From Eledone cirrhosa (taxonomy: Eukaryota): DNA of 64,000 nucleotides. A model generated the notes under the pieces. That model worked only from the letters and a program-made list of their open reading frames with translations. It had not been told where the DNA came from and made no database searches. Below, in pieces: positions 33,965-63,135 of this stretch (positions within the stretch are counted from its first letter, which is position 1; every line of letters starts with the position of its first letter). A program made the position numbers and the translations under genes. Location: positions 1,612,001 to 1,676,000 of the forward strand of contig OZ024747.1 in assembly GCA_964016885.1 (NCBI GenBank). The letters run 5' to 3'.

Positions 33965-35648
33965 TAATACTACTACTGATAATACCAGTAGTAGTAGTAC
34001 TGATAATACCAGTAGTAGTAGTACTGATAATACCAGTAGTAGTACTGATAATACCAGTAGTAGTAGTACTGATAATACCAGTAGTAGTAGTACTGATAAT
34101 ACCAGTAGTAGTACTGATAATACCAGTAGTAGTAGTACTGATAATACCAGTAGTAGTAGTACTGATAATACCAGTAGTAGTAGTACTGATAATACCAATA
34201 GTAGTAGTACTGATAATACCAGTAGTAGTACTGATAATACCAGTAGTAGTACTGATAATACCAATAGTAGTAGTACTGATAATACCAGTAGTAGTAGTAC
34301 TGATAATACCAGTAGTAGTAGTACTGATAATAGTAGTAGTAGTAGTACTGATAATAGTAGTAGTAGTAGTACTGATAATACCAGTAGTAGTAGTACTGAT
34401 AATAGTAGTAGTACTGATAATACCAGTAGTAGTACTGATAATACCAGTAGTAGTACTGATAATACCAGTAGTAGTACTGATAATACCAGTAGTAGTAGTA
34501 CTGATAATACCAGTAGTAGTAGTACTGATAATACCAATAGTAGTAGTACTGATAATACCAGTAGTAGTAGTACTGATAATACCAGTAGTAGTAGTACTGA
34601 TAATACCAATAGTAGTAGTACTGATAATACCAGTAGTAGTAGTACTGATAATACCAGTAGTAGTAGTACTGATAATACCAGTAGTAGTAGTACTGATAAT
34701 ACCAGTAGTAGTAGTACTGATAATACCAGTAGTAGTAGTACTGATAATACCAATAGTAGTAGTACTGATAATACCAGTAGTAGTAGTACTGATAATACCA
34801 GTAGTAGTAGTACTGATAATACCAGTAGTAGTAGTACTGATAATACCAGTAGTAGTAGTACTGATAATACCAATAGTAGTAGTACTGATAATACCAGTAG
34901 TAGTAGTACTGATAATACCAGTAGTAGTAGTACTGATAATACCAGTAGTAGTACTGATAATACCAGTAGTAGTAGTACTGATAATACCAGTAGTAGTAGT
35001 ACTGATAATAGTAGTAGTAGTAGTACTGATAATAGTAGTAGTAGTAGTACTGATAATACCAGTAGTAGTAGTACTGATAATAGTAGTAGTACTGATAATA
35101 CCAATAGTAGTACTGATAATACCAGTAGTAGTACTGATAATACCAGTAGTAGTAGTACTGATAATACCAGTAGTAGTACTGATAATACCAGTAGTAGTAG
35201 TACTGATAATACCAGTAGTAGTAGTACTGATAATAGTAGTAGTAGTAGTAGTACTGATAATAGTAGTAGTAGTAGTACTGATAATAGTAGTAGTAGTAGT
35301 AGTACTGATAATACCAGTAGTAGTAGTACTGATAATAGTAGTAGTACTGATAATACCAATAGTAGTACTGATAATACCAGTAGTAGTACTGATAATACCA
35401 GTAGTAGTAGTACTGATAATACCAGTAGTAGTAGTACTGATAATAGTAGTAGTAGTAGTACTGATAATACCAGTAGTAGTAGTACTGATAATACCAGTAG
35501 TAGTAGTACTGATAATACCAGTAGTAGTAGTACTGATAATACCAGTAGTAGTAGTACTGATAATACCAGTAGTAGTAGTACTGATAATACCAGTAGTAGT
35601 ACTGATAATACCAGTAGTAGTACTGATAATACCAGTAGTAGTACTGAT
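33965..35648. repeat. 21-24-bp minisatellite (gtactgataatacca(gta)n)
   Basis: Direct inspection. Confidence 0.95.
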
Positions 35649-39643: not shown

Positions 39644-39851
39644 CAGTGTGTGAGTCAGCCCATCATTAACTGCAAGAACTGGAGGCTGTACTTCCGTTTC
39701 CTTACTTGGGAACAACAGACAGCTTGTCATTGGCTACAACATATATTACATACTACATAACTTGATAGAACTATATAACAGTATACCAAACTATTCACAA
39801 CTACTATATCTTACCAGAATATTGAAACAGTAACAATATAAACAACTGTTG
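39644..39851 (+). promoter_or_regulatory. Conserved promoter and non-coding first exon of protocadherin A
   Basis: ~210-bp block repeated before each gene. It contains TGAGTCA, ACTTCCG and ATTGG and ends in TG|GTAAGT. The TSS cannot be located. Confidence 0.75.
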
Positions 39852-41880: not shown

Positions 41881-41941
41881 TTTATAATCAATATACTTCA
41901 ATTTCAGGTAACTTGACTAAATACCAAGGAAGACCATAGAC

Positions 41942-44368
41942 ATGTTGCCCATTGTATTGTTGTTGTTGTTAATGGCTGACAACTGCTGGTGTCTGGATCA
42001 TATCTATCATGTGAAAGAGAACAATGATATACACAGCTATATTGGAGATATTGTTACTGATACACACTTACTGGATAATATAACATCTGGGGATGATAGA
42101 AAGAAACTGAAATTTAATGTACTCCAGGATAGTACTGATGAAACTGTTCAGTTATTTAATGTTACATCTGGAGGACAACTGTACACAGCTGCCATATTGG
42201 ATGCTGAAACTCTGTGTCAATATAATGTGGAATGTTTCAGGATATTGGAAATAGCAGTTCAATATAACCATTCTTATATGAAGATATTAGAAATAAAAGT
42301 TATGATAGATGATGTCAATGATAATTATCCTGTGTTTCCAAACAAGGAATTTACCCTACAATTTGATGAAGATGATTTCATAGGAACAAAGGGGGCTATT
42401 CCAAATGCTTTTGATAAAGATGTCAGTATTAAGAATTCTGATCTCTCATATCATTTTAACCAAGATGTCGATATTCCTTTCAAATTGTTTTTTTCTAAGA
42501 AACCAGATGGTACTGATATATTACAGATAATTTTAGAAGATAACTTAGATCGTGAGAAGAAAGACATTTATAATATCCAGTTAATAGCTACAGATGGAGG
42601 ATCTCCACCAAAGGAAGGTGTACTGGATATAAAAATATTGGTGGAGGACATAAATGATAATTCCCCTGTATTCTCCCAGGATATCTACAATGTAACTGTA
42701 AATGATAAACACCAGATAAACAAACCTGTTGTAAGGTTGTCAGCTACAGATTTAGATGAAGGAGAAAATGGAAGAATTTCTTATGTCTTTAATAAAGCTA
42801 AAACAACAAATAAGATAAAAGAATCCTTTAAACTGGATGAAATAACTGGAGAATTGTTTCTGAAGAACAAATTTAGTTTTAGTAAAATCTATACATTGTT
42901 TATTGAAGCCAGAGATAATGGTAAACCACCGATGTCTTCAACAGTCACAGTTCTTATAAATGGTATCAGTCACTTTAACAATCCACCAAACATTGATGTC
43001 AAGTTTGTCTTAAAGTCAACTGGAAACACAGCTGTCATCTCAGAAGCAACTCTAATTCACAGCTTTGTTGCTTATGTCAAAGTTACTGACAATGATAGTG
43101 AAGTTAATGGACAAGTGAAGTGTTATTTAGAAAATAAATACCTTCAGTTAATCTCAATATCTCAGAAGAAATATAAAGTTGTTGTAAAGAGTAAAATAGA
43201 TAGAGAGAGTGAGAAGAGTTTTAATTTCACGATTAAATGTCAAGATAAAGGTTTACCTCCATTGAGAGTAGAGAAAGAGTTTTCTATGTTAGTTACTGAT
43301 ATAAATGATGTGAAACCTAAGTTTAGTGAGGATATATTTAAATTTCTCACCTATGAAAATGAAGATAAAGACTTCCCTGTTGGATATATCAATGCTACAG
43401 ACCCAGATCTTGGAGATGGAGGACAATTTATCTATTCTCTTTTAAATAATGGAAAAGATATTCTACCATTTCAGATATCAAATCTGGGATTTATTTCTAC
43501 AACTCAGTCACTAGATAGAGAAGAAAAGAAGATGTATGAGTTTAAAGTTTTAGTAAAAGATAAAGGAAGACCATCACTAGAGAACACAGCAAATGTTATT
43601 GTTGAAGTTATGGATTTAAATGATAATGTTCCATATTTCAGTTTCCCTAATGTTAACCCTTTTAGTCTTGATGTTCACTACCATCCTCACAGTGAACATG
43701 ATATCACAGTTATAAGGGCCTCTGATAGAGATAGTCAACATAATGCCTTCCTTACATATGAAATAGTAAGAGGTAATAAGAAAGAGTTATTTAGAATTAA
43801 TCCTCACTCTGGTGTCTTATCTTTCTCTCGGTCAGTTTACCAAAATGATGCTGGACTCTATCAACTAGAATTAAGTGTAAAAGATAATGGTAGTCCAGTT
43901 CTGTCATCAACAACAACTTTATCTTTGACTTTAACAGTTAGTAACAACACATCAAAGATATTTAAGACATCTTTAAAGACAACAACATTAAGTAAAGGTC
44001 TTCCTTTTAATGTGATAATTATTATTGTTATAGCAACTGTGGTAGTATCAGTTGTTATAGTGATCTCTATATCAATCTGTATAGTTCATAGACTAAAGCA
44101 GACAGATAGTAACTATAGTAGTGGTAGTAGTAGTAGTAGTAGTGGTGATGGTGGTGGTGGTAGTGTTGATATGTACCACAAGGTTACACCTACATTAGAT
44201 ATACAGTCAAAATATATCTTTGATCCAACTTGTGTTGATCCTGGAGTACATTATACCATGGGGAGAAATGTGAAAAAATCTCAACCAATGATAGACAGAG
44301 AAGATATTCACTGCAGAACTCTGCCATGTGACAGATGGGGTAATCCAACTTTCAGACCTCATCAACAG
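41942..44368 (+). CDS. Protocadherin A, large exon: signal peptide, EC1-EC6, TM, juxtamembrane
   Basis: DVNDNYP, LDRE, DINDNSP and ATDxD cadherin motifs; EC1 C-X5-C. Acceptor tttcag at 41907, CAG|gtaaga donor. Confidence 0.96.
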
Positions 44369-44993
44369 GTAAGATAACTTTAGAATAATATCTTATAACT
44401 TTGAAACATCTCTGTCTATTTTCACATGATTTAGTAATTTCTTTAAAATATATTATTTTAATTTTATATAAAACTATCTAATGACAAGGAGATATCAGAT
44501 TTGCCATACTTCATGATGTTTTATGTATATAATCTAAATCTTTATCATTCAATATTATAGGAACTGTTTTATTGTGATAAATTATTTCAGGGTTTCTTTT
44601 GAAGTTTATAATTTATCTAAAAGAACCATCCATTTAAGTGATAATGTTTTCTGTCATCCAGAGAAGCACATTCTTGAAATGTTTCCAATAACGTAAAAAT
44701 TAATGTAACACATAGCTGGGTGTGTATCTATCTATATTTTAAATAATCAGATTGTATATTGATTAAATTATAATATATGATTTGTAATAAATATTTTCAC
44801 TGATCCTCAAATCTTCTAAACCACATGCTATTATGTAATCTGGTGTTGATGTCTGTTAGATGAGAAAATATTTTGTAAGAATTAAAATAGTGTTGAGACA
44901 ATTTATACCAATATTTCTAACTGGAGTCACAAGAAGAATGTTTTGTTCTGTGACTCTCAATTCTATGTTGTACATGTATCTCATTAACTTTAG

Positions 44994-45144
44994 ATGTTTG
45001 TTCCAAGAGAAGAAAGTATGTCTCCAGGTTACAGAGAACTAAACAATACTGACCAATTCAGTGACATGTCAACATTATCATCTCACACTGATAGTGGTCA
45101 TGGTTTGAGTGTTGGTAGTGCTGGACATTATGAGGAACTGCCAG
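44994..45144 (+). CDS. Protocadherin A cytoplasmic exon (CM1-like SHTDSGHG.S)
   Basis: ctttag acceptor, CCAG|gtaagt donor, 151 nt (phase 0 to 1). Conserved in all three genes. Confidence 0.9.
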
Positions 45145-45230
45145 GTAAGTCTGAAATACTCTCTCTAATCTTTTTCCTTACCTCGTTTTCTTTACCCCTC
45201 TGTCTGTCTCTCACACATACCCAAATATTT

Positions 45231-45610
45231 CATCATCATCATCTGGCGGCCTCAGCTGAAATAGAATCAACAATTGATCTCCACGTGGGTCTGTTGTTCA
45301 TTGCTGTTGCCAAGTCCTGGATTTCAATAGCAAAATCTCTGGAGATGACATCTGGATAGGAGAGCTTACACACCCTGTTGTTAGTGAGTGCTTGTGGTTT
45401 CCAAAACACAAATGGGGACACAGTCTCATAGGTGGCACAATGGCAGTGACCAGAAAATATTAATCTCCTTTTATGTACAACAACAGATATGTGTGGCAGG
45501 CTGGCATATATCTCTCTCAAAGTCAGATGTCACCATCTTATGTCCTGAATGCATTGAAGCAGGCGAGTGCAAGTGCCATCAAGTTACTTTTGTTGTTTGG
45601 ATGAAAGCAG
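45231..45610 (-). mobile_element. 3' fragment of an RTE-type LINE in PCDH-A intron 3
   Basis: Minus ORF RRLIFSGHC...FWKP...DVISRD...AMNNRPTWR with a (GAT)n tail. Confidence 0.75.
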
Positions 45611-46035
45611 CCATGTTTCACTTCTATATAGTCAGACATTTACTCTCACTCTCTGTCTTTCTCCCTCATCTCTCTCTCATCTTTTTCCTTACCTCTTTTT
45701 CTCTACCCCTGTCTCTCTCTCACAAATACCCAGACATTTACTCTCACTCTCTTTCACTGTTTTTATTAATTTTAGATCTCAAAATATTCAATGTTTTAAT
45801 CAGAAGTATGTACTTTACAAAACACATTCAGTTCATATTACACTAAAACTAGTTCCACAATTATACACAGCTTTATCTTTTCGATTCTAATACTTATTGA
45901 AAATCATCAAATTCTATACTTTCTCTCTTTCATTAGTTTTGATCTCTAGATATTAAAAAGTTTAATCAGAATCTTCTATTTTATAGATCTCCCATAAATC
46001 TATATTGTACAAAATATACGTTTATATATTTCCAG

Positions 46036-46376
46036 ATCTGTGTCGTTATCAAAGTGACAATACATGGAACAGGAGAAATCAACTTCCACACACACTGACA
46101 AGATCAAGAGGAGATAACAACATTGGATATCATATTCAACCTAATGTTAACACTTCCTGTGATCAGCACCAAATACCTTTCACTATAACTGGTACCACAT
46201 CTAACATAACTGAACAACCATCTACAATGACAAGTAACTTTACTTCAAAGAGTAAACCACCTCTACCAGCTGTACCTAAAGTAACAACAGTACCAAAGGT
46301 ACCTTCAATACCTCAGGTACCTTCTCTGACTATAGTAAAAAACTTACATAGCAGCTCTATGGAAGCCCTGAATTAA
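46036..46376 (+). CDS. Protocadherin A terminal exon (...SMEALN*)
   Basis: tttccag acceptor, phase 1, 341 nt in all three genes. Confidence 0.88.
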
Positions 46377-46475
46377 TATTACCATCTCTCAAGCAATCAT
46401 TAATCCATACATATTGATATATATAATCATTAATAAACTATTCCTCTAGATATATATTATAACAACCTTCTACAG

Positions 46476-48118
46476 TTGCAATGACAAGTGACTTTACTTC
46501 AAACAGTAAACTAACTCTACCAGCTGTACCTAACAACACTGTCAAAGGTACCATTAGTACCTCAGGTACCTCCTCCATCTACAACAGTAAACTAACTCTA
46601 CCAGCTGTACCTAACAACACTATCAAAGGTACCATTAGTACCTCAGGTACCTCCTCTATCTACAACAGTAAACCAGCACTACCAGCTGTACCTAACAACA
46701 CTATCAAAGGTACCATTAGTACCCCAGGTACCTCCTCTATCTACAACAGTAAACCAGCACTACCAGCTGTACCTAACAACACTATCAAAGGTACCATTAG
46801 TACCCCAGGTACCTCCTCTATCTACAACAGTAAACCAGCACTACCAGCTGTACCTAACAACACTATCAAAGGTACCATTAGTACCCCAGGTACCTCCTCT
46901 ATCTACAACAGTAAACCAGCACTACCAGCTGTACCTAACAACACTATCAAAGGTACCATTAGTACCTCAGGTACCTCCTCTATCTACAACAGTAAACCAG
47001 CACTACCAGCTGTACCTAACAACACTATCAAAGGTACCATTAGTACCTCAGGTACCTCCTCTATCTACAACAGTAAACCAGCACTACCAGCTGTACCTAA
47101 CAACACTATCAAAGGTACCATTAGTACCCCAGGTACCTCCTCTATCTACAACAGTAAACCAGCACTACCAGCTGTACCTAACAACACTATCAAAGGTACC
47201 ATTAGTACCCCAGGTACCTCCTCTATCTACAACAGTAAACCAGCACTACCAGCTGTACCTAACAACACTATCAAAGGTACCATTAGTACCCCAGGTACCT
47301 CCTCTATCTACAACAGTAAACCAGCACTACCAGCTGTACCTAACAACACTATCAAAGGTACCATTAGTACCTCAGGTACCTCCTCTATCTACAACAGTAA
47401 ACCAGCACTACCAGCTGTACCTAACAACACTATCAAAGGTACCATTAGTACCTCAGGTACCTCCTCTATCTACAACAGTAAACTAACTCTACCAGATGTA
47501 CCTAACAACACTATCAAAGGTACCATTAGTACCTCAGGTACCTCCTCTATCTACAACAGTAAACTAACTCTACCAGCTGTACCTAACAACACTAACAAAG
47601 GTACCATTAGTACCTCAGGTACCTCCTCTATCTACAACAGTAAACTAACTCTACCAACTGTACCTAACAACACTATCAAAGGTACCATTAGTACCACAGG
47701 TACCTCCTATATCTACAACAGTAAACTAACTCTACCAACTGTACCTAACAACACTAACAAAGGTACCATTAGTACCTCAGGTACCTCCTCTATCTACAAC
47801 AGTAAACCAGCACTACCAGCTGTACCTAACAACACTATCAAAGGTACCATTAGTACCTCAGGTACCTCCTCTATCTACAACAGTAAACTAACTCTACCAG
47901 CTGTACCTAACAACACTATCAAAGGTACCATTAGTACCTCCTCTATCTACAACAGTAAACTATCTCTACCAGCTGTACCTAACAACACTATCAAAGGTAC
48001 CATTAGTACCTCAGGTACCTCCTCTATCTACAACAGTAAACTAACTCTACCAGCTGTACCTAACAACACTAACAAAGGTACCATTAGAATCTCAGGTACC
48101 TACTATATCTACAACTAA
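46476..48118 (+). repeat. 81-bp tandem array (about 20 units), open 545-aa frame; possible alternative last exon of PCDH-A
   Basis: 27-aa period YNSKPALPAVPNNTIKGTISTSGTSSI, preceded by ccttctacag. Confidence 0.9.
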
Positions 48119-48835
48119 CACTAAAATATTATAAAACTAATAGTAGGAAGAATGCCACACTAAATACCATGTAGTATTCTGTTATATATCTTTGTGGACT
48201 GAGATCAAATCCTACCCCAGTTCACCTTTGTTATATTCTCCCAGAGGTCTTCTACAACCCTCACCAAATACAGTTTAATTGTCTTAATTACAATATCAAA
48301 CATAACTTTACCTTATATAATGGTAAACTATATATAGTACAACAAATATTTGATATGAAAATATATATAGAGGGATAAATTATTCAAATATTAACATTTT
48401 ATCAAGAAATATGAGAGAATATTTTATAGAATTTATATAACATCTCTATAACATTTCTTAAAGATATATTTATTTTGAACCACAGTTTCGTATATTCAAA
48501 TGAGTTCAATTATTTTATAATATAATTAATTACTTAAAATATTATTTTAATAAATTTTTTATGATAGATTTGTTAAGTAAAGAAGTTTGTTAACTCAACC
48601 AGAAAAGTTGAAACTATAGAATTGAAAAAGTTTTCAAAGTCTTACTAAAGTCATAAAATAAGATTTCATCATTGAAATTATAATATAATTAATTTAATAA
48701 TTAATATTTCTTATATATTTCATTGTTTTAAACATTTTAGATATTAAATATTTCCACCCATTGAATTATAAATGTTCTAGTCACACACATCTATATGTAT
48801 CTCTATATATATATGTGTGTGTAAGTAAATATAAT

Positions 48836-49042
48836 AGTGTGTGAGTCAGCCCATCATTAACTGCAAGAACTGGAGGCTGTACTTCCGTTTCCTTACTTGG
48901 GAACAACAGACAGCTTGTCATTGGCTACAACACATATTACATACTACATAACTTGATAGAACTATATAACAGTATACCAAACTACTCACAACTACTATAT
49001 CTTACCAGAATATTGAAACAGTAACAATATAAACAACTGTTG
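48836..49042 (+). promoter_or_regulatory. Conserved promoter and non-coding first exon of protocadherin B
   Basis: Near-identical to 39644-39851; TG|GTAAGT donor. Confidence 0.75.
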
Positions 49043-50293
49043 GTAAGTATTTTTATAAAGTTATTCTCTGTTTTATAAATTAGATATTTAGATATTTGGT
49101 AAAGTCTCTCTATGTCTCTAAGTTACCATCTTGGTAAAACTACATCACTATAACAGTGAAATACTTCCAGAATAACAATATCATTTTAATAAGTTATTTT
49201 ATTAAGTTTTCATAATATATTTTTCTACAATTATTTTAAGATTGTTGCTTTTAAAAGAACACAAATATAATTTAATATTTAGAAAACTATTTCATTTATT
49301 ATAATGTTTAAAATATATTTTCTAATATTCCTAAACTAGTTATAATATAAATCAGTGAAACGTTATATTAATAATAATATAAATCAGTGAAACGTTATAT
49401 TAATAATAATAATATATTTGTTTGTTATTTCCAATGATAAGATATTGTTTAGTTTTGTTGGTTTATTATTGTTATAGTGTTAAATATATTGTATGTTATC
49501 CTAGAATGTGAGATGTAACCAGGATGTAGTATTGATTGTAAGGGAAGTTACTCTTAATGACTTTAATGATGGTTTAACTTGCTGGAAATAGTAGCTACAT
49601 GTTCCTCAAATATCATCTTATCGTCTTTATAAAGAGAACATATTGGATAACATATTCCTGGATATATATAAAAAGATGGTGCTTTCCTAGCTTGGATATG
49701 TTTAATCATTAGTCTGCCCTACAATGTTGACCAGGTGCTAATCAAAGACAGATACAACCCTTAATATAGCAGTCTCAACCATACAGTCTACGAACTACTT
49801 CTCTATGGCCCTTGGGAGAACAATGGAAAATTTGTCCCCAAAATTTTGTACTAATTCATATATCTCACTTACTATCGCAGAATCTCTCTACAATTTACTT
49901 TCCATCATCATCTCATCAATTTGAGATCAGCTCTCACCATCTCCACCCAGGTGTTCCTTAGGTTTCATGTATTGTGGCTTCTGTTCACTGGGATTTCCAG
50001 TCTCTTATTCACCCAGCAATCATCATCCATGTGCATCACATGTCCATACCAGTGCAGTCTCCTCTCCACCATGCTATTTCAGATTTCTATTACACCCAGT
50101 TTTTCTCTCAGTTCAACCATTCTTTGTCATTTATACACATTAACACTGCACATCCATCAAAACATTGATAAATATATCAACATTTAGAGATAAATTTCAT
50201 GGGAATATATGTTAAGTATTATTTTCATAGATTTATGAACTCTACATTTGTGAATATCAATTGTTTACTATAAACTTCTATTTCAGATTAACA

Positions 50294-52711
50294 ATGTCTC
50301 CATTGATATTGTTGTTGTTGTTGTTAATGGCTGACAACTGCTGGTGTCTGGATCATATCTATCATGTGAAAGAGAACAATGATATACACAGCTATATTGG
50401 AGATATTGTTACTGATACACACTTACTGGATAATATAACATCTGGGGATGATAGAAAGAAACTGAGATTTAATGTACTCCAGGATAGTACTGATGAAACT
50501 GTTCAGTTATTTAATGTTACATCTGGAGGACAACTGTACACAGCTGCCATATTGGATGCTGAAACTCTGTGTCAATATAATGTGGAATGTTTCAGGATAT
50601 TGGAAATAGCAGTTCAATATAGCCATTCTTATATGAAGATATTAGAAATCAAAGTTATGATAGAAGATGTCAATGATAATTACCCTGTGTTTCCAAACAA
50701 GGACTTTATTCTGCAATTTGATGAAAATGTATTGATAGGAACAAAGTATACAATTCCAAATGCTTTTGATAAAGATGTCAGTATTGAGAATTCTGATCTG
50801 TCTTATCAACTCAACAAAGATGTCGATATTCCTTTTAAAATCTTTGTTTCCAATAAACCTGATGGAACAGACTTTCTACAACTTGTTTTAGAAGATAACT
50901 TAGATCGAGAGAAGAAAGACATTTATAATATCCAGTTAATAGCTACAGATGGAGGATCTCCACGAAAGGAAGGTGTACTGGATATGAAAATATTGGTGGA
51001 GGACATAAATGATAATTCGCCTGTATTTTTCCTGGATATCTACAATGTAACTGTAAATGATAAACACCAGATAAACAAACCTGTTGTAAGATTGTCAGCT
51101 ACAGATTTAGATGAAGGAGAAAATGAAAGAATTTCTTATGTCTTTAATAAAGCTAAAACAACAAATAAGATAAAAGAATCCTTTAAACTGGATGAAATAA
51201 CTGGAGAATTGTTTCTGAAGGACAAATTTAGTTTTAGTAAACTCTACGAGCTATTTATTGAAGCCAGAGATAATGGTAAACCACCGATGTCTTCAACAGT
51301 TACAGTTCTTATAAATGGTATCAGTCACTTTAACAATCCACCAAACATTGATGTCAAGTTTCTCTTAAAGTCAACTGGAAACACAGCTGTCATCTCAGAA
51401 GCAACTCTAATTCACAGCTTTGTTGCTTATGTCAAAGTTACTGACAATGATAATGAAGTTAATGGACAAGTGAAGTGTTATTTAGAAAATAAATACCTTC
51501 AGTTAATCTCAATATCTCAGAAGAAATATAAAGTTGTTGTAAAGAGTAAAATAGATAGAGAGAGTGAGAAGAGTTTTAATTTCACGATTAAATGTCAAGA
51601 TAAAGGTTTACCTCCATTGAGAGTAGAGAAAGAGTTTTCTATGTTAGTTACTGATATAAATGATGTGAAACCTAAGTTTAGTGAGGATATATTTAAATTT
51701 CTCACCTATGAAAATGAAGATAAAGACTTCCCTGTTGGATATATCAATGCTACAGACCCAGATCTTGGAGATGGAGGACAATTGATCTATTCTCTTTTAA
51801 ATAATGGGAAAGATATTCTACCATTTCAGATATCAAATCTGGGATTTATTTCTACAACTCAGTCACTAGATAGAGAAGAAAAGAAGATGTATGAGTTTAA
51901 TGTTTTAGTAAAAGATAAAGGAAGACCATCACTAGAGAACACAGCAAATGTTATTGTTGAAGTTATGGATTTAAATGATAATGTTCCATATTTCAGTTTC
52001 CCTAATGTTAACCCTTTTAGTCTTGATGTTCACTACCATCCTCACAGTGAACATGATATCACAGTTATAAGGGCCTCTGATAGAGATAGTCAACATAATG
52101 CCTTCCTTACATATGAAATAGTAAGAGGTAATAAGAAAGAGTTATTTAGAATTAATCCTCACTCTGGTGTCTTATCTTTCTCTCGGTCAGTTTACCAAAA
52201 TGATGCTGGACTCTATCAACTAGAATTAAGTGTAAAAGATAATGGTAGTCCAGTTCTGTCATCAACAACAACTTTATCTTTGACTTTAACAGTTAGTAAC
52301 AACACATCAAAGATATTTAAGACATCTTTAAAGACAACAACATTAAGTAAAGGTCTTCCTTTTAATGTGATAATTATTATTGTTATAGCAACTGTGGTTG
52401 TATCAGTTGTTATAGTGATCTCTATATCAATCTGTATAGTTCATAGACTAAAGCAGACAGATAGTAACTATAGTAGTGGTAGTAGTAGTAGTGGTGGTGG
52501 TGGTAGTGTTGATATGTACCACAAGGTTACACCTACATTAAATATACAGTCAAAATATATCTTTGATCCAACTTGTGTTGATCCTGGAGTACATTATACC
52601 ATGGGGAGAAATGTGAAGAAATCTCAACCAATGATAGACAGAGAAGATATTCACTGCAGAACTCTACCAGGTGACAGATGGGGTAATCCAGCTTTCAGAC
52701 CTCATCAACAG
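50294..52711 (+). CDS. Protocadherin B, large exon (SP, EC1-6, TM)
   Basis: Acceptor tttcag at 50286, ATG at 50294, CAG|gtaaga donor, cadherin motifs. Confidence 0.96.
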
Positions 52712-53121
52712 GTAAGATAACTTTAGAATAATATCTTATAACTTTGAAACATGTCTGTCACTTTTCAAATCATTTGTAATATATAGTTGTATATTTTATA
52801 TAACCCTATATAATGACAGGGAGAGTTAAACATAATTTGTCATATATTTTACAGTTTTATACTAAAATATTCAGTGTTGAATTACTAAATATTTATTGCA
52901 AAATATATTCAAAATATATCAATAATTGTAAATTTTCTGCCAACAGATATTTTTGGATTTATTTTGAAATTAATAATTAAATGAATGGAATATTTCAAGT
53001 TAAGTTTTTTGCCATGTTAAGAAGCAATTTCTTGAAATGTATTTCTAACTGGAGTCACAAGAAGAATGTTTTGTTCTGTAACTCTCAATTCTATGTTGTA
53101 CATGTCTCTCATTAACTTTAG

Positions 53122-53272
53122 ATGTTTGTTCCAAGAGAAGAAAGTATGTCTCCAGGTTACAGAGAACTAAACAATACTGACCAATTCAGTGAGATGTCAA
53201 CATTATCATCTCACACTGATAGTGGTCATGGTTGGAGTGTTGGTAGTGCTGGACATTATGAAGAACTGCCAG
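53122..53272 (+). CDS. Protocadherin B cytoplasmic exon (CM1-like)
   Basis: 151 nt, canonical sites. Confidence 0.9.
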
Positions 53273-53490
53273 GTAAGTCTGAAATACTCAATATTTCTAC
53301 CAAAAATCTCTTATCCTTATAATTATTAGTGTATTTTAGTACTTTTAATTATTAAAACATCATATTATTCCAATGTAGTTTGTTAGCTGGTAAAATTCTT
53401 TCCAAGACCAGAATTATGTATTTTTAAAATTTACTTTCATTTTATTTTGTACAAAATTTGATTCTGTCCCCTAAATCAACCTATTTCCAG

Positions 53491-53831
53491 ATCTGTGTCG
53501 TTATCAAAGTGACAAGACATGGAACAGGAGAAATCAACTTCCACACACACTGACAAGATCAAGAGGAGATAACAACATTGGATATCATTATCAACCTAAT
53601 ATTAACACTTCCTGTGATCAGCAGCAAATACCTTTCACTATAACTGGTACCACATCTAACATAACTGAACAACCATCTACAATGACAAGTAACTTTACTT
53701 CAAAGAGTAAACCACCTCTACCAGCTGTACCTAAAGTAACAACAGTACCAAAGGTACCATCAATACCTCAGGTACCTTCTCTGACTATAGTAAAAAACTT
53801 ACATAGCAGCTCTATGGAAGCCCTGAAATAA
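53491..53831 (+). CDS. Protocadherin B terminal exon (...SMEALK*)
   Basis: tttccag acceptor, 341 nt, homologous to 46036-46376. Confidence 0.88.
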
Positions 53832-53930
53832 TATTACCATCTCTCAAGCAATCATTAATCCATACATCTTGATATATATAATCATTAATAAACTATTCCT
53901 CTAGATATATATTATAACAACTTTCTACAG

Positions 53931-54124
53931 TTGCAATGACAACTGACTTTACTTCAAACAGTAAACTAACTCTACCAGCTGTACCTAACAACACTATCAA
54001 AGGTACCATTAGTACCTCAGGAACCTCCTCTATCTACAAAAGTAAACTAACTCTACCAACTGTACCTAACAACACTATCAAAGGTACCATTAGAATCTCA
54101 AGTACCTCCTCTATCTACAACTAA
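53931..54124 (+). repeat. 81-bp array, only about 2 units
   Basis: Same unit and same upstream ttctacag as in gene A. Confidence 0.85.
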
Positions 54125-54843
54125 CACTAAAATAATATAAAACTAACAGTAGGAAGAATGCCACACTAAATACCATGTAGTATTTTGTTATATATCTTTG
54201 TGGACTGAGTTCAAATCCTACCCCAGTTCACCTTTGTTATATTCTGCCAGGGGGTCTTCTACAACCCTCACCAAATACAGTTTAATTATCTTAATTACAA
54301 TATCAAACATAACTTTACCTTATATAATGGTAAACTATATATAGTACAACAAATATTTGATATGAAAATATATATAGAGTGATAAATTATTCAAATATTA
54401 ACATTTTATAAAGAAATATTTGAGGCAATATTTTATAGAATTTATATAACGTCTCTATAACATTTCTTAAAGATATATTTATTTAGAGCCACAGTTTCGT
54501 ATTTTCAAATGAGTTCAATTATTCTATAATATAATTAATTACTTAAAATATTGTTTTAATAAATTTTTATTATAGATTTGTTAATTAAAGAAGTTTGGAA
54601 ACTAAACCAGAAAAGTTGAAACTATTGACTTGAAAAGGTTTTCAAAGTCTTACTAAAGTCATACAAAAAGATTCTTTCATTGGAATTATAATTTAATTAA
54701 TTTAATAATTAATATTTATTACATATTTTATTGTTTTAAACATTCTAGATATTAAATATTTCCACCTATTGAATTATAAATGTTCTAGTCACACACATCT
54801 ATATGTATCTCTATATATATATGTGTGTGTAAGTAAATATAAT

Positions 54844-55050
54844 AGTGTGTGAATCAGCCCATCATTAACTGCAAGAACTGGAGGCTGTACTTCCGTTTCC
54901 TTACTTGGGAACAACAGACAGCTTGTCATTGGCTACAACACATATTACATACTACATAACTTGATAGAACTATATAACAGTATACCAAACTACTCACAAC
55001 TACTATATCTTACCAGAATATTGAAACAGTAACAATATAAACAACTGTTG
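54844..55050 (+). promoter_or_regulatory. Conserved promoter and non-coding first exon of protocadherin C
   Basis: Same block, with TGAGTCA changed to TGAATCA. Confidence 0.75.
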
Positions 55051-56291
55051 GTAAGTATTTCTATAAAGTTATTGTTTTATAAATTAGTTATTTAGATATT
55101 TGGTAAAGTCTCTCTATGTCTCTAAGTTACCATCTTGGTAAAACAACATCACTATAACAGTGAAATACTTCCAGTATAACAATATCATTTTAATAAGTTA
55201 TTTTATTAAGTTTTCATAATATATTTTTCTACAATTATTTTAAGATTGTTGCTTTTAAAAGAACACAAATATAATTTAATATTTACAAAATTATTTAATT
55301 TATTATAATGTTTAAAATATATTTTCTAATATTCCTAAGCTAGTTATAATATAAATCAGTGAAACGTTATATTAATAATAATATATTTGTTTATTATTTC
55401 TAATGATAAGATATTGTTTAGTTTTGTTGGTTTATTATTGTTATAGTGTTAAATATATTGTATGTTATCCTAGAATGTGAGATGTAACCAGGATGTAGCA
55501 TTGATTGTAAGGGAGGTTACTCTTAATGACTTTAATGAGGGAGCCTTTATGTGATGGTTTAACTTGCTGGAAATAGTAGCTACATATTCCTCAAATAACA
55601 TCTTATCCTCTTTATAAAGAGAACATATTGGATAACATATTCCTGGATATATATAGAAAGATGGGGTTTTCCTAACTTGGATATGTTTAATCATTAGTCT
55701 GCCCTTCAATGTTGACCAGGTGCTAATCAAGAACAGTAACAACCCTTAATACAGAGGTCTCAGCCATACAGCCCACAAACTACTTCTCTATGGCCCTTGA
55801 TAGAACAAAGGAAACTTGTCCCCTAAATTTTGTACTGCTTCATATATCTCACTTACTATCACACTATCTCTCTCCAATTTACTTTCCCCACATCATCTGC
55901 TCTGTGAACTTCATCAATTTGAGATCAACTCTCTCCATCTCCACCCAGGTGTTCCCTAGGTTTCATGTATTGTGGCTTCCCTTCACTGGGATTTCCAGTC
56001 TCTTATTCACCCAGCAATCATCATCCATGTGCATCACATGTCCATACCAGTGCAGTCTCCTCTCCACCATGCTATTTCAGATTTCTCTTACACCCAGTTT
56101 TTCTCTCAGTTCAACCATTCTTTGTCATTCATACACATTAACACTGCACATCCATCAAAACATTGATAAATATATCAACATTTAGAGATACATTTCATGG
56201 GAATATATGTTAAGTATTATTTTCATAGCTTTATGAACTCTACATTTGTGAATATCAATTGTTTACTATAAACTTCTATTTCAGATTAACA

Positions 56292-58706
56292 ATGTCTCCA
56301 TTGATATTGTTGTTGTTGTTAATGGCTGACAACTGCTGGTGTCTGGATCATATCTATCATGTGAAAGAGAACAATGATATACACAGCTATATTGGAGATA
56401 TTGTTACTGATACACACTTACTGGATAATATAACATCTGTGGATGATAGAAAGAAACTGAGATTTAATGTACTCCAGGATAGTACTGATGAAACTGTTCA
56501 GTTATTTAATGTTACATCTGGAGGACAACTGTACACAGCTGCCATATTGGATGCTGAAACTCTGTGTCAATATAATGTGGAATGTTTCAGGATATTGGAA
56601 ATAGCAGTTCAATATAGCCATTCTTATATGAAGATATTAGAAATCAAAGTTATGATAGAAGATGTCAATGATAATTATCCTGTGTTTCCAAACAAAGAAT
56701 TTCAACTAAAATTTGATGAAAGTGTGGCAAAAGGCTCCAAAGAAATAATACCAAATGCTATTGATAAAGATGTCAACATTCAGAACTCCAAAATTAATTA
56801 TAAAATCAAAGATAATTTAGATATCCCTTTCAAATTAGTTTTATCACATAAATCTGGAGAAGCTGATTTACTTGAACTGGTTTTAGAAGAGAATTTAGAT
56901 CGAGAAAGAAAATCTGATTATCATTTCCAACTAGCTGCTATAGATGGAGGATCTCCACCTAAAGAAGGTATACTGGATATAAAAATATTAGTGGAAGATA
57001 AAAATGATAATTCACCATTATTCTCTCAAAGTATTTATAATATCTCAATAAATGATAAACACCAGTTGAAGAAACCTGTATTTATATTTTCTGCTACAGA
57101 CTTGGATGAAGGTGAAAATGGGAGAATTTCTTACTTAATTAATTCTAAAACAACAGAAAAGTCAAAAATTGTTTTTAAATTAGATGAAGATACGGGAGAA
57201 TTGTTTCTGACAAAAGAATTTGAGTTTGGACGAATCTATGAATTATTTGTTGAAGCCAGAGATAATGGTAAACCTCCAAGATATTCGAGAGAAACACATG
57301 TTCTTATAAATGGTATCAGCCACTTTAACAATCCACCAAACATTGATGTCAAGTTTGTCTTAAAGTCAACTGGAAACACAGCTGTCATCTCAGAAGCAAC
57401 TCTAATTCACAGCTTTGTTGCTTATGTCAAAGTTACTGACAATGATAATGAAGTTAATGGACAAGTGAAGTGTTATTTAGAAAATAAATACCTTCAGTTA
57501 ATCTCAATATCTCAGAAGAAATATAAAGTTGTTGTAAAGAGTAAAATAGATAGAGAGAGTGAGAAGAGTTTTAATTTCACGATTAAATGTCAAGATAAAG
57601 GTTTACCTCCATTGAGAGTAGAGAAAGAGTTTTCTATGTTAGTTACTGATATAAATGATGTGAAACCTAAGTTTAGTGAGGATATATTTAAATTTCTCAC
57701 CTATGAAAATGAAGATAAAGACTTCCCTGTTGGATATATCAATGCTACAGACCCAGATCTTGGAGATGGAGGACAATTGATCTATTCTCTTTTAAATAAT
57801 GGGAAAGATATTCTACCATTTCAGATATCAAATCTGGGATTTATTTCTACAACTCAGTCACTAGATAGAGAAGAAAAGAAGATGTATGAGTTTAATGTTT
57901 TAGTAAAAGATAAAGGAAGACCATCACTAGAGAACACAGCAAATGTTATTGTTGAAGTTATGGATTTAAATGATAATGTTCCATATTTCAGTTTCCCTAA
58001 TGTTAACCCTTTTAGTCTTGATGTTCACTACCATCCTCACAGTGAACATGATATCACAGTTATAAGGGCCTCTGATAGAGATAGTCAACATAATGCCTTC
58101 CTTACATATGAAATAGTAAGAGGTAATAAGAAAGAGTTATTTAGAATTAATCCTCACTCTGGTGTCTTATCTTTCTCTCGGTCAGTTTACCAAAATGATG
58201 CTGGACTCTATCAACTAGAATTAAGTGTAAAAGATAATGGTAGTCCAGTTCTGTCATCAACAACAACTTTATCTTTGACTTTAACAGTTAGTAACAACAC
58301 ATCAAAGATATTTAAGACATCTTTAAAGACAACAACATTAAGTAAAGGTCTTCCTTTTAAAGTGATAATTATTATTGTTATAGCAACTGTGGTAGTATCA
58401 GTTGTTATAGTGATCTCTATATCAATCTGTATAGTTCATAGACTAAAGCAGACAGATAGTAACTATAGTAGTGGTAGTAGTAGTAGTAGTGGTGGTGGTA
58501 GTGTTGATATGTACCACAAGGTTACACCTACATTAAATATACAGTCAAAATATATCTTTGATCCAACTTGTGTTGATCCTGGAGTACATTATACCATGGG
58601 GAGAAATGTGAAGAAATCTCAACCAATGATAGACAGAGAAGATATTCACTGCAGAACTCTACCAGGTGACAGATGGGGTAATCCAGCTTTCAGACCTCAT
58701 CAACAG
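56292..58706 (+). CDS. Protocadherin C, large exon (SP, EC1-6, TM)
   Basis: Acceptor at 56284, ATG at 56292, CAG|gtaaga donor. EC2-EC3 divergent. Confidence 0.96.
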
Positions 58707-58774
58707 GTAAGATAACTTTAGAATAATATCTTATAACTTGGAAACATGTCTGTGACTTTTCAAATCATTTATGA

Positions 58775-59468
58775 CATCATCATCATTGTCTTACGTCCAC
58801 CTATCGCTGCTTGCAAGGGTGGGATCGGTCCTTTCCAGCACAGCATCCCTCCTTTCTCCTTTCGTCACGGTTCTCGTCATCTCCTCTGTGAGCTTCAGCG
58901 ATCTGAGGTCAGCTACCCCACCTTTGCTTGTATAGAGATTTTCGTTGTCTTCCTCTACTGCATCTTCCTTCCACTGGGATTTCTTGGCACTTCTTTACCC
59001 AGCAGTCATCTTCATTGCGTATCGCATATCCATATCAATGAAGTCTTCTCACCCACACACTACAGCCTATCCCTCTTATATACAGTTTCCCTCTCAACTC
59101 ATCTATGCTTGGTTGTTCACGCATATTGATGTTACACATCCAATGGAGCATACTTGCTTCATTTCTCTCCAGACGTCGCATATCCTCCACAGTTGCTGCC
59201 CATGTCTCACTACCATGCAGCATGGCGTAGCTCACACAGGCATCATATAACCAGCCTTTTGTTCGTAGGGAGAAACTCTTCTTTGTCAACAGAGGAAGCA
59301 GCTCCCTAAACTTCTTCCAACCTGTTCTTATATAGATACTATGGCCTTGGTGCACCCTCCTTCCTTGGTAATCTGGTCACCTAGGTATAGGAAGCTATCA
59401 ACCACCTCCATAGAACCTACCTATATTTGAAAAATACGTCTATCACTGCCACTTCTATTATCAAATTT
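58775..59468 (-). mobile_element. 5'-truncated RTE copy in PCDH-C intron 2, related to 13400-15822
   Basis: [18 protein letters not shown]...[10 protein letters not shown] near-identical peptide; (GAT)n tail. Absent at the same position of gene B. Confidence 0.92.
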
Positions 59469-59813: not shown

Positions 59814-59964
59814 ATGTTTGTTCCAAGAGAAGAAAGTATGTCTCCAGGTTACAGAGAACTAAACAATACTGACCAATTCAGTGAGATGTCAACATTATCA
59901 TCTCACACTGATAGTGGTCATGGTTGGAGTGTTGGTAGTGCTGGACATTATGAGGAACTGCCAG
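59814..59964 (+). CDS. Protocadherin C cytoplasmic exon (CM1-like)
   Basis: 151 nt, canonical sites. Confidence 0.9.
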
Positions 59965-60180: not shown

Positions 60181-60521
60181 ATCTGTGTCGTTATCAAAGT
60201 GACAATACATGGAACAGGAGAAATCAACTTCCACACACACTGACAAGATCAAGAGGAGATAACAACATAGGATATCATTATCAACCTAATATTAACACTT
60301 CCTGTGATCAGCACCAAATACCTTTCACTATAACTGGTACCACATCTAACATAACTGAACAACCATCTACAATGACAAGTGACTTTACTTCAAAGAGTAA
60401 ACCACCTCTACCAGCTGTACCTAGAGTAACAACAGTACCAAAGGTACCATCAATACCTCAGGTACCTTCTCTGACTATAGTAAAAAACTTACATAGCAGC
60501 TCTATGGAAGCCCTGAATTAA
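60181..60521 (+). CDS. Protocadherin C terminal exon (...SMEALN*)
   Basis: tttccag acceptor, 341 nt. Confidence 0.88.
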
Positions 60522-60620: not shown

Positions 60621-62210
60621 TTGCAAGGACAAGTGACTTTACTTCAAACAGTAAACTAACTCTACCAGCTGTACCTAACAACACTGTCAAAGGTACCATT
60701 AGTACCTCAGGTACCTCCTCTATCTACAACAGTAAACCAGCACTACCAGCTGTACCTAACAACACTATCAAAGGTACCATTAGTACCTCAGGTAACCTCC
60801 TCTATCTACAACAGTAAACTAACTCTACCAGCTGTACCTAACAACACTATCAAAGGTACCATTAGTACCTCAGGTACCTCCTCTATCTACAACAGTAAAC
60901 TAACTCTACCAGCTGTACCTAACAACACTATCAAAGGTACCATTAGTACCTCAGGTACCATTAGTACCTCAGGTACCTCCTCTATCTACAACAGTAAACT
61001 AACTCTACCAACTGTACCTAACAACACTATCAAAGGTACCATTAGTACCTCAGGTACCTCCTCTATCTACAACAGTAAACCAGCACTACCAGCTGTACCT
61101 AACAACACTATCAAAGGTACCATTAGTACCTCAGGTACCTCCTCTATCTACAACAGTAAACTAACTCTACCAGCTGTACCTAACAACACTATCAAAGGTA
61201 CCATTAGTACCTCAGGTACCTCCTCTATCTACAACAGTAAACCAGCACTACCAGCTGTACCTAACAACACTATCAAAGGTACCATTAGTACCCCAGGTAC
61301 CTCCTCTATCTACAACAGTAAACCAGCACTACCAGCTGTACCTAACAACACTATCAAAGGTACCATTAGTACCTCAGGTACCTCCTCTATCTACAACAGT
61401 AAACCAGCACTACCAGCTGTACCTAACAACACTATCAAAGGTACCATTAGTACCTCAGGTACCTCCTCTATCTACAACAGTAAACTAACTCTACCAGCTG
61501 TACCTAACAACACTATCAAAGGTACCATTAGTACCTCAGGTACCTCCTCTATCTACAACAGTAAACCAGCACTACCAGCTGTACCTAACAACACTATCAA
61601 AGGTACCATTAGTACCCCAGGTACCTCCTCTATCTACAACAGTAAACCAGCTCTACCAGCTGTACCTAACAACACTATTAAAGGTACCATCAGTACCTCA
61701 GGTACCTCCTCTATCTACAACAGTAAACTAACTCTACCAACTGTACCTAACAACACTATCAAAGGTACCATTAGTACCTCAGGTACCTCCTCTATCTACA
61801 ACAGTAAACTAACTCTACCAGCTGTACCTAACAACACTATCAAAGGTACCATTAGTACCTCAGGTACCTCCTCTATCTACAACAGTAAACCAGCACTACC
61901 AGCTGTACCTAACAACACTATCAAAGGTACCATTAGTACCTCAGGTACCTCCTCTATCTACAACAGTAAACTAACTCTACCAGCTGTACCTAACAACACT
62001 ATCAAAGGTACCATTAGTACCTCAGGTACCTCCTCTATCTACAACAGTAAACCAGCACTACCAGCTGTACCTAACAACACTATCAAAGGTACCATTAGTA
62101 CCTCAGGTACCTCCTCTATCTACAACAGTAAACTAACTCTACCAGATGTACCTAACAACACTATCAAAGGTACCATTAGAATCTCAGGTACCTCCTATAT
62201 CTACAACTAA
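60621..62210 (+). repeat. 81-bp tandem array (about 19 units) after PCDH-C
   Basis: Same unit; 1-nt insertion near 60794 and an 18-nt duplication near 60950. Confidence 0.9.
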
Positions 62211-62928: not shown

Positions 62929-63135
62929 AGTGTGTGAGTCAGCCCATCATTAACTGCAAGAACTGGAGGCTGTACTTCCGTTTCCTTACTTGGGAACAAC
63001 AGACAGCTTGTCATTGGCTACAACACATATTACATACTACATAACTTGATAGAACTATATAACAGTATACCAAACTACTCACAACTACTATATCTTACCA
63101 GAATATTGAAACAGTAACAATATAAACAACTGTTG
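62929..63135 (+). promoter_or_regulatory. Promoter and non-coding first exon of a fourth protocadherin that continues beyond the window
   Basis: Same block followed by intron-1 sequence homologous to genes B and C. Confidence 0.75.

Follow-up and report, generated by a model that had tools for sequence, protein, structure and literature searches.

A ten-copy protocadherin array in the octopod Eledone cirrhosa with a homogenised frame and old EC2-EC3 cassettes that are probably kept by selection

The window analysed here is a stretch of 64,000 nt from Eledone cirrhosa (GCA_964016885.1, contig OZ024747.1, positions 1,612,001 to 1,676,000 of the forward strand). It carries three + strand ORFs, each with six cadherin repeats, here named protocadherin A, B and C. 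These are the first three of ten whole-gene tandem copies (A-J; G000:C7, as assembled). The seven further copies (D-J) lie directly downstream of the window, with their coding exons at G000:C7:1677k-1728k. The copies are arranged head-to-tail as whole-gene duplicates with a near-identical repeat unit of 6-9 kb. Orthologues are present in other octopods, and the identity of the array to the orthologous set in Octopus and Argonauta is 70-76%. The ectodomain and the TM helix are located within one large exon, and each copy has its own 5' exon as well as its own exons 2 and 3 (10/10 copies). The positions of the features are given in Table 1.

Nine of the copies were intact. In the assembly, copy G was frameshifted and carried a 40-nt deletion in EC2; this pseudogene was excluded from every codon and protein analysis. 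Near-duplicates within the array are C/D, E/I and A/B/F. Additionally, the copies differ by private substitutions, repeat lengths and insertions, and an N gap and a stray additional exon 3 follow the last copy.

Table 1. Positions of the protocadherin features within the window
Feature	Position	Strand	Remarks
Gene A, conserved upstream element (likely promoter and non-coding first exon)	39645..39851	+	207 nt; ends at GT donor
Gene A, large exon (signal peptide, EC1-EC6, stalk, TM, start of cytoplasmic tail)	41908..44368	+	ATG 41942
Gene A, domains	EC1 41993-42325; EC2 42326-42661; EC3 42662-42982; EC4-EC6 42983-43939	+	
Gene A, variable EC2-EC3 cassette	42342..42950	+	A/B/F/H lineage
Gene A, cytoplasmic exon 2	44994..45144	+	151 nt, AG..GT
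Gene A, cytoplasmic exon 3, to stop	46036..46376	+	protein 972 aa
Gene B, likely promoter and non-coding first exon	48836..49042	+	
Gene B, large exon	50287..52711	+	ATG 50294; EC2 50681-51016; EC3 51017-51337
Gene B, variable cassette	50697..51305	+	
Gene B, exon 2	53122..53272	+	
Gene B, exon 3, to stop	53491..53831	+	protein 969 aa
Gene C, likely promoter and non-coding first exon	54844..55050	+	
Gene C, large exon	56285..58706	+	ATG 56292; EC2 56676-57011; EC3 57012-57332
Gene C, variable cassette	56692..57297	+	C/D lineage
Gene C, exon 2	59814..59964	+	
Gene C, exon 3, to stop	60181..60521	+	protein 968 aa
Gene D, likely promoter and first exon	62929..63135	+	coding exons of D beyond the window

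With six cadherin repeats, one TM helix and a cytoplasmic tail the encoded proteins are six-EC protocadherins. Pfam assigned PF00028 five times, together with an N-terminal PF08266 and a match for the sixth domain. The alignment-based fold model had a pLDDT of 88.7 and the single-sequence model one of 32.6. Best Foldseek matches of the model were protocadherin EC1-4 structures with 6vg1 at rank 1; this non-clustered delta2-type protocadherin was the closest solved sequence as well (E=1.7e-82). A homodimer prediction for EC1-4 of B, in which the predictor ignored the alignment, gave a score of 0.00 and speaks neither for nor against a dimer. The EC2-3 linker was canonical in 122/126 octopod sequences. 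At the EC3-4 linker DxNDN was absent in 126/126, and the DRE motif of EC3 was found in 0/126. The non-canonical EC3-4 calcium linker is a lineage-wide deviation and no ground for exclusion from the protocadherins. Since this linker is unlike that of vertebrate protocadherins, the dimer geometry may differ and a rigid EC1-4 dimer is not guaranteed.

The sequence-only reading of this DNA had described A, B and C as near-identical in EC1, EC4-EC6, TM and cytoplasmic exons, with EC2 different in all three and EC3 strongly different in C. Amino acid counts per domain bear this out. Differences for A-B/A-C/B-C amounted to 19/42/43 of 112 in EC2 and 6/32/35 of 108 in EC3. The constant ectodomain differed by 3/4/1 of 111 (EC1), 2/1/1 (EC4), 2/2/0 (EC5) and 0/0/0 (EC6), stalk and TM by 0/1/1, the cytoplasmic part of exon 1 by 7/8/1 (chiefly the length of a Ser/Gly tract) and exons 2 and 3 together by 7/6/5 of 163.

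Sliding-window and per-domain values of identity, dS and dN/dS over the cluster, by which the proposal of a constant frame was to be checked, gave no uniform divergence either, with EC2 and EC3 standing out. Over the 36 pairs of the nine intact copies the amino acid identity was 0.99, 0.65, 0.70, 0.98, 0.98 and 0.99 from EC1 to EC6, and dS was 0.009, 0.65, 0.57, 0.010, 0.014 and 0.003, respectively. The nucleotide difference was 0.23 in the island (~610 nt) versus 0.0075 in the remainder of the large exon, and 318/639 alignment columns were polymorphic within the island versus 46/1761 outside. The edges are as abrupt as had been noticed: between adjacent 60-nt windows the mean pairwise difference of the ten copies rose from 0.014 to 0.197 at the EC1/EC2 linker, and where EC3 ends it dropped from 0.107 to 0.023. 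In gene C the island was measured at 56692-57297, where about 56696-57300 had been read before.

Non-coding DNA of the array differed less, namely by 0.007 in promoter and first exon (mean, 10 copies) and by 0.032 in the first intron (7/10 copies). Since the coding island is more diverged than this non-coding DNA, it is old and retained. GC3 was flat (0.19-0.27), thus leaving no signature of GC-biased conversion. The dN/dS of EC2-3 was 0.34-0.37 (9 intact copies), and no value above 1, as for positive selection, was found in EC2-3; pN/pS among the few close pairs was 0.37, 0.45 and 0.25 (3, 4 and 2 pairs). Identical EC2-3 proteins were found between copies in 0/36, 0/780 and 1/190 pairs of the three arrays of this genome. 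Mapped on the secondary structure, the variable residues were spread through both EC2 and EC3 and not limited to one face. Several copies are close within the cassette (90-95% identity), and such copies may not represent distinct specificities.

The element upstream of each copy (207 nt) was near-identical throughout, with a mean difference of 0.7% among the 10 copies and one partial match elsewhere. Judged from their sequence, such near-identical promoters suggest that the copies are co-expressed or stochastically chosen rather than driven by copy-specific enhancers. Octopus single-cell data describe some PCDH as ubiquitous and others as cell-type enriched, and stochastic choice is not demonstrated there (PMC9712504). 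An AP-1/ETS-like pattern occurred once in four 40 kb blocks of other arrays; with this one simple pattern, a promoter motif common to all arrays was not found. A spliced contig agrees with the predicted exon junctions and thus indicates transcription. Furthermore, a contig from the spliced-RNA-bearing run X4 terminates exactly at 55050, the end of the likely first exon of gene C.

Near-identical repeats of 6-9 kb are hard to assemble, and the N gap and stray exon 3 behind the last copy would fit an artefact in which a collapsed or polished constant consensus was inserted into different loci. The sequence-only reading had named this as a refuting possibility. It was checked with short-read contigs assembled independently of the genome assembly; their depth reflects neither copy number nor expression level, and contig boundaries and joints were used. 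In the region of gene C single long contigs covered EC1 (56192-56677) and EC4-5 (57321-57965), and separate contigs were present per cassette type; organism A and another organism, taken from a different study, agreed in this. Because the constant parts thus collapse and the contigs split at the cassette edges, the pattern is not a product of assembly polish. X1/X3 are possibly the assembled sample. However, long contigs over the constant parts and separate ones per cassette type were found in two organisms, the copies carry private substitutions, differing repeat lengths and insertions, and the same pattern was seen in four independent assemblies of other species. An assembly artefact is refuted as the source of the cassette pattern, and we regard it as the most improbable of the alternatives.

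The cassette pattern, first read from three genes, recurs in two other arrays of this genome and in orthologous arrays of Octopus and Argonauta. The amino acid identities from EC1 to EC6 were 0.92/0.60/0.62/0.81/0.97/0.97 in an array of 40 genes, 0.93/0.77/0.75/0.98/0.98/0.98 in one of 20 genes and 0.56/0.54/0.53/0.65/0.72/0.82 among 10 dispersed genes of this genome. The orthologues of Argonauta hians (6 rows) reached 0.97 in EC1, 0.59 in EC2, 0.56 in EC3 and 0.97-0.99 in EC4-6. Their constant sequences are only 78-84% identical to those of the Eledone cirrhosa array and were therefore homogenised independently. A second Argonauta array (25 rows) gave 0.80/0.56/0.57/0.79/0.97/0.98. Homogenisation of EC1 (0.77-0.84) and EC4 (0.82-0.87) is just partial in three species of Octopus, which the sequence-only reading had missed, and in the array C2:238 divergence extends into late EC1 and EC4; the sharp limit to EC2-3 is thus not universal. 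The EC5/EC6 averages of O. bimaculoides are distorted by truncated or fused gene models (alternative value 0.93 on 3 and 1 pairs). Squid or cuttlefish sequences were not among the matches listed; the five sub-arrays of squid arose by a separate expansion.

Phylogenetic trees separate both parts of the gene. The nine copies formed a single clade in the trees of EC1 (SH-aLRT 99), EC4 (98) and EC5+6 (99) and fell into three clades in the EC2-3 tree. Here, C/D were sister to P0003/P0004 of Octopus (100/99) and E/I/J to four rows of O. sinensis/O. vulgaris (100/96). To force EC2-3 of the nine copies into one group costs 148 lnL (AU p=8e-8). The cassette lineage A/B/F/H was found without an Octopus sister and the Argonauta cassettes formed their own clade (82/91), so that trans-species lineages are common to Octopus only. 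The trees took in no vertebrate rows, and 7 truncated or fused gene models of O. bimaculoides were dropped from those of EC1, EC4 and EC5+6. The contrast between EC1, EC4 and EC5+6 on one side and EC2-3 on the other substantiates the earlier proposal of a variable cassette in a homogenised frame: the constant parts were homogenised within the species and the cassettes predate the split from Octopus.

The cassettes are themselves mosaics, a feature which had escaped the earlier reading. Identical runs were globally significant in 15/45 copy pairs, and incompatibility between near sites was 0.131 compared to 0.215 after shuffling (0/2000 shuffles). In copy J an EC2 of its own is followed by an EC3 of the E/I type, and the first 36-nt block of the gene B cassette is common to copy E, which belongs to another lineage. 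Both domains vary jointly, and in most cases they stay linked, with EC2 of one type accompanied by EC3 of that type (ABF, CD, EI). Natural chimeras among the copies are J, H and B/E.

Recent duplicates that took EC2-3 from unrelated protocadherins or from silent donors elsewhere would also have abrupt edges and a high dS. However, the ten array members make up the ten best genome matches of the C cassette (68-100%), matches found elsewhere are partial (66-70%; 40 of 89 candidates scored), and orthologous cassettes occupy the orthologous array in Octopus species. From these comparisons conversion by donor cassettes is largely refuted for the C cassette and is altogether very improbable.

The island may also have been retained passively. 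EC2-3 would then have diverged beyond the identity needed for recombination, with conversion resetting the flanks only and no selection acting on specificity. The dN/dS of well under 1 in EC2-3 and a dS peak that matches the dN peak in height are in agreement with this. Furthermore, dispersed genes are least constrained in EC1-3 (0.53-0.56 versus 0.82 in EC6), so that EC2-3 would diverge first. However, these dispersed genes conserve EC1 no better than EC2-3, and EC1 is nevertheless homogenised in the arrays. The island does exchange sequence, even across deep lineages (the B-E block, the J chimera), and it is EC2 and EC3 that are spared in each of the three arrays of this genome, in Argonauta and also in vertebrates. 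Turnover of whole genes, seen in the near-duplicates C/D, E/I and A/B/F and in pseudogene G, would be expected to eliminate lineages through drift, but two of them predate the Octopus split. On these verbal grounds we consider passive retention distinctly unlikely.

We rather favour, with a probability of roughly two in three, that the constant frame of the ten-copy array is homogenised and that old, shuffled EC2-EC3 cassettes are selectively kept as a predicted isoform-specific binding surface. Gene conversion and unequal crossover between copies would homogenise the constant parts, and selection would oppose a copy overwriting EC2-3 of its neighbour, so that the island persists. The cassettes would be kept distinct by selection because EC2-EC3 is predicted to make each isoform bind its own kind across cells. 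The evolutionary half of the earlier inference is supported by the whole tandem genes with their own 5' and cytoplasmic exons, the homogenised frame and the old cassettes.

For the functional half, a recognition code is proposed by analogy with vertebrate clustered protocadherins. According to passages of PMC5001838, EC2/EC3 is the specificity interface in vertebrate protocadherins and the antiparallel EC1-4 dimer is proposed to be ancestral for the family; in vertebrates EC1:EC4 carries specificity as well (PMC5106212). By analogy, EC2:EC3 would bind antiparallel in trans with isoform specificity, and each copy likely binds only its own kind through the cassette. With EC5-6 and tail uniform, the copies would be interchangeable as cis partners and would give one and the same signal, and they might serve as a neuronal identity code. 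Diversifying selection on the cassette for another role, i.e. heterophilic wiring of cell types as in delta-protocadherins, or the binding of pathogens or external ligands, would leave the same genomic signature. The non-canonical EC3-4 linker, the best match to the delta2-type 6vg1 and the cell-type-enriched PCDH expression in the octopus brain (PMC9712504) agree with such a role. However, EC2 and EC3 co-vary, as expected for the matching faces of an antiparallel homodimer, and the lineages are stable across genera and not rapidly replaced, which would be unlike an arms race. A role other than self-recognition is therefore unlikely in our opinion.

A wider proposal is that octopods built a vertebrate-style neuronal barcode independently, at least three times in separate arrays. 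It would combine whole genes, in which conversion keeps interchangeable promoters, cis domains and tails alike, with an EC2-EC3 lock-and-key cassette that persists across genera and gains new diversity from sub-block swaps and new EC2/EC3 pairings, and possibly with a dimer centred on EC2:EC3 that is freed by a calcium-poor EC3-4 hinge. This proposal is tentative, and we put its chances somewhat short of even.

Tandem expansion of coleoid PCDH was already known. Passages of PMC9068888 describe an expansion independent of the vertebrate clusters and advance no functional claim. Gene conversion is proposed there and in passages of PMC6339937 in general terms, the latter stating that the adhesion specificity of cephalopod protocadherins is not known. 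In the passages of the coleoid PCDH literature at hand no per-domain analysis, EC2-3 cassette or trans-species cassette lineages were found. The PCDH burst dated at 8-14 Ma in a passage of PMC9795677 is based on whole-gene distances and is probably biased young, because homogenisation affects such distances. Whole-gene trees and dates of recent octopod PCDH bursts are likely conversion-biased in general, and EC2-3 is preferable for orthology. The paralogues would be indistinguishable in single-cell RNA-seq from 3' ends and with most in situ probes, and current expression maps may merge them. Since the nine proteins, including the chimeras J, H and B/E, are 98-99% identical outside EC2-3, a difference in binding would map directly to the cassette.

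Among known systems, the Eledone array is one of the coleoid PCDH sub-arrays as in O. bimaculoides, D. pealeii, A. fangsiao and O. sinensis. The delta-protocadherins (Xenopus Pcdh8.1, PCDH17/18/19), nearest in solved sequence and fold, are single dispersed genes without conversion, and the EC3-4 linker of the delta-type 6vg1 is canonical, unlike that of the octopod sequences. In arthropod Dscam1 and chelicerate sDscam, mentioned in PMC6339937, the recognition domains likewise vary inside a constant frame and serve self-avoidance. They have an Ig fold, gain diversity by alternative splicing or promoters and are unrelated to protocadherins.

Vertebrate clustered Pcdh share with the array tandem head-to-tail paralogues and six EC and TM in one large exon, as described in passages of PMC4978886. 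Mouse alpha and zebrafish genes are further reported there with EC2-EC3 as the most divergent and least converted part, spared by conversion in the vertebrate clusters, with homogenised EC1/EC5/EC6 and a common tail. Identities given for mouse Pcdh-alpha are 95.9 (EC1), 69.3 (EC2), 58.5 (EC3), 85.5 (EC4), 98.0 (EC5) and 84.3 (EC6). The contrast is sharper in the octopod array, with 98-99% in EC4 and EC6 versus 85% in mouse alpha, and the octopod EC3-4 calcium linker is non-canonical, unlike in vertebrate clustered Pcdh. Moreover, in contrast to vertebrate alpha/gamma no variable exons are spliced to shared constant exons, and the tails are kept alike by homogenisation. The convergence reaches as far as which domains escape homogenisation. 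Our best reading is that the pattern converges on vertebrate clustered protocadherins without shared constant exons.

The window carries three plus-strand open reading frames of approximately 810 codons each (A, B and C), which encode six cadherin repeats (EC1 to EC6), a transmembrane (TM) helix and a short tail. An EC1 query against the species' own genome returned ten matches (copies A to J) of 96-100% identity within 71 kb of contig C7; beyond these none exceeded 55% (150 of 255 candidates scored). Every copy was a whole gene consisting of an upstream element (207 nt, with a GT donor at its end in 10 of 10 copies), a large exon, exon 2 (151 nt) and exon 3, and the predicted proteins of A, B and C measured 972, 969 and 968 aa, respectively. 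Contigs of sequencing run X4, whose kind is not on record, included at least two types of the variable EC2-EC3 stretch, here named cassette. One contig of this run was spliced at both GT..AG introns, with junctions exactly as predicted for copy E. The large exon was intact in nine copies, DNA downstream of the window included. A deletion leads to a frameshift in copy G, which is either a pseudogene or an assembly error.

Features in and around the protocadherin array (window positions unless contig C7 is named)
Feature	Position	Remark
Minisatellite arrays	3063-8512, 26371-31790, 33962-35643	very long, upstream of the array; 31-, 20-, 36- and 24-bp units
ERGIC-53/LMAN1-like exon	9596-9835	upstream neighbour of the array; E=5e-10 to 8jp4
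Reverse-transcriptase ORF	13331-15802	823 codons, PHD-like finger; non-LTR element
Upstream element	39645-39851, 48836-49042, 54844-55050, 62929-63135	99% identical in all ten copies
Upstream element elsewhere	C7:3294749	one partial match, 81%
Acceptor/signal-peptide start, A	41908-41965	J: downstream stretches L005/L006
81-bp tandem repeat	46502-48115, 53955-54120, 60647-62207	right after each stop
EC3-EC4 linker	51295-51345	and equivalents
Short-read contig, EC1	56192-56677	organism A
Variable island of C	56692-57297	
Short-read contig, C-type cassette	56744-57328	organism A
Short-read contig, EC4-EC5	57321-57965	organism A
Reverse-transcriptase fragment	58737-59376	related to the ORF; an insertion within the first intron of C
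Copy G (downstream stretch L003)	C7:1699.2k-1701.6k	40-nt deletion in EC2
Extra stray exon 3 (downstream stretch L007)	C7, ~1735.9k and 1741.0k	past an AT array, then a 200-N gap

The upstream element, containing words which we take to be AP-1-, ETS- and CCAAT-like, was kept even in A and J despite their differing flanks. These end copies share an acceptor and signal-peptide start that differs in the eight inner copies, which is the pattern that unequal crossover largely confined to the array interior should leave. The 81-bp repeat stems from the end of exon 3 and is possibly a 3' UTR or an alternative tail; it has about 20, 2, 19, 2, 4, 8, 5 and 16 units in A to H, with an open frame of 551 codons in A. 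At L007 the assembly of the array end may be incomplete.

As the sequence-only reading had proposed, A, B and C were near-identical outside EC2-EC3, with only 0-4 residue differences in EC1, EC4-6 and TM. Its view that EC2 diverges in all three (19, 42 and 43 of 112 residues in the pairs) and EC3 strongly in C (6, 32 and 35 of 108) was likewise borne out. When the nine intact copies were compared in all 36 pairs, identity was 0.99 in EC1, 0.65 in EC2, 0.70 in EC3 and 0.98-0.99 in EC4-6. In the same pairs dS was ~0.01 outside the island, 0.65 in EC2 and 0.57 in EC3, with dN/dS of 0.37 and 0.34 in the latter two. At the nucleotide level the copies differed by 0.23 within the island; the figures for the remaining exon, the upstream element and the first intron (seven copies with comparable introns) were 0.0075, 0.007 and 0.032, respectively. 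The island starts a few codons into EC2 and stops approximately ten codons short of the EC3 end. It is old rather than hypermutated.

At 85% identity EC2 fell into five types and EC3 into four. Identical EC2-3 proteins occurred in none of the 36 copy pairs and, in the other arrays, in none of 780 pairs and one of 190. A permutation test for runs of identity gave a global p<0.05 in 15 of 45 copy pairs; some short runs on conserved motifs may reflect constraint, but the long runs are clear. Copy J combines a private EC2 (dS 0.8-0.9) with an EC3 of the E/I type (dS 0.03-0.05), B and E have a common EC2 start, and the cassettes of G and H are patchworks, that of G being made of other types. Outside the array, no donor closer to the C cassette than array members was found in the genome (40 of 89 candidates scored).

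As a check on assembly artefacts, short-read contigs were inspected. In organism A, EC1 and EC4-5 were each spanned by one contig and the C-type cassette lay on a separate one; the depths of 69, 68 and 12, respectively, do not equal copy number and are consistent with flanks common to many copies. In a second organism from another study, contigs of C-type and E-type cassettes matched at ~91% and flanks at 95-97%. Runs X1 and X3 are possibly the assembled sample and hence not independent.

Two further arrays on contig C2 were compared with ten dispersed protocadherin genes as controls. From EC1 to EC6, identity was 0.92/0.60/0.62/0.81/0.97/0.97 in the array at 238 Mb (40 genes of 43 listed) and 0.93/0.77/0.75/0.98/0.98/0.98 in that at 239 Mb (20 genes: 18 of 24 listed from the EC1 search and two from a cassette search), and 0.56/0.54/0.53/0.65/0.72/0.82 in the controls. 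The same profile recurred among orthologues of the 238 Mb array, with 25 rows from Argonauta and 8 and 10 from Octopus. Within these arrays the units also had non-coding sequence in common.

A protein search identified 17 close relatives (70-76%) in O. vulgaris, O. sinensis, O. bimaculoides and Argonauta hians; among the matches listed, the next reached at most 57%. Members were taken from 10 of the 17 relative clusters, yielding 48 distinct EC2-3 rows after fused models had been split. The public models P0125, P0127, P0136, P0138, P0142 and P0146, with lengths of 1,900-6,600 aa, each fuse several neighbouring protocadherin genes from the orthologous array and are likely annotation errors. The nine copies formed a single clade for EC1 (46 rows, SH-aLRT 99), EC4 (47 rows, 98) and EC5+6 (41 rows, seven O. 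bimaculoides rows being left out; 99). For EC2-3 they fell into three starred clades, two with Octopus sisters, and a single-clade constraint was rejected (AU p=8e-8). This contrast indicates that the constant parts were reset after the Octopus split and that two cassette lineages are older than the split. The profile of Argonauta was equally sharp (EC1 0.97, EC2 0.59, EC3 0.56, EC4-6 0.97-0.99), with constant sequence of its own and cassettes in a separate clade. In Octopus EC5-6 were homogenised, EC1 and EC4 only partly (0.77-0.87); the 90% clustering of the database favours divergent members, which may lower within-species averages but could not create the contrast between domains. We regard homogenised constant parts with old, retained cassettes as highly probable (approximately 0.9).

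Recombination among near-identical neighbours would homogenise promoters, introns, EC1, EC4-6 and the tail. Overwriting of one copy's EC2-3 by that of a neighbour would likely be selected against because a specificity is lost, and small exchanges within cassettes could give rise to new specificities.

The EC1-4 model, built from a 126-row alignment (pLDDT 88.7), matched protocadherin EC1-4 structures, and calcium ligands and core residues were fixed in EC2-3. Per-site variability of EC2-3 in this array correlated with that of Octopus (rho 0.61) and Argonauta (0.41), values which partly owe to structural constraint and shared lineages. The EC2-3 linker was canonical in 122 of 126 octopod rows; in the EC3-4 linker DxNDN, and in EC3 DRE, occurred in 0 of 126. 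This suggests a calcium-poor, possibly flexible EC3-EC4 hinge in octopods, on which our literature search found nothing. In contrast, the Xenopus Pcdh8.1 chain has a canonical EC3-4 linker.

This domain profile has already been described in vertebrate clusters (PMC4978886, Table 1; Noonan 2004, as cited in the literature). For cephalopods, PMC9068888, PMC6339937, PMC10084454, PMC9795677 and PMC9712504 report arrays of whole genes and mention conversion as a possibility. In the literature searched, which most subscription journals lay outside, no analysis of such arrays by domain was found. The octopod pattern is real. In vertebrates, the main specificity interface is EC2/EC3 and EC1/EC4 largely provide affinity (PMC5001838), although EC1:EC4 also contributes to specificity (PMC5106212). 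In trans, binding remains strictly homophilic at identities as high as 92%, and in cis it is promiscuous (PMC8901172). Carried over to octopods by analogy, these binding rules would make homophilic specificity the probable cause of the evolutionary pattern.
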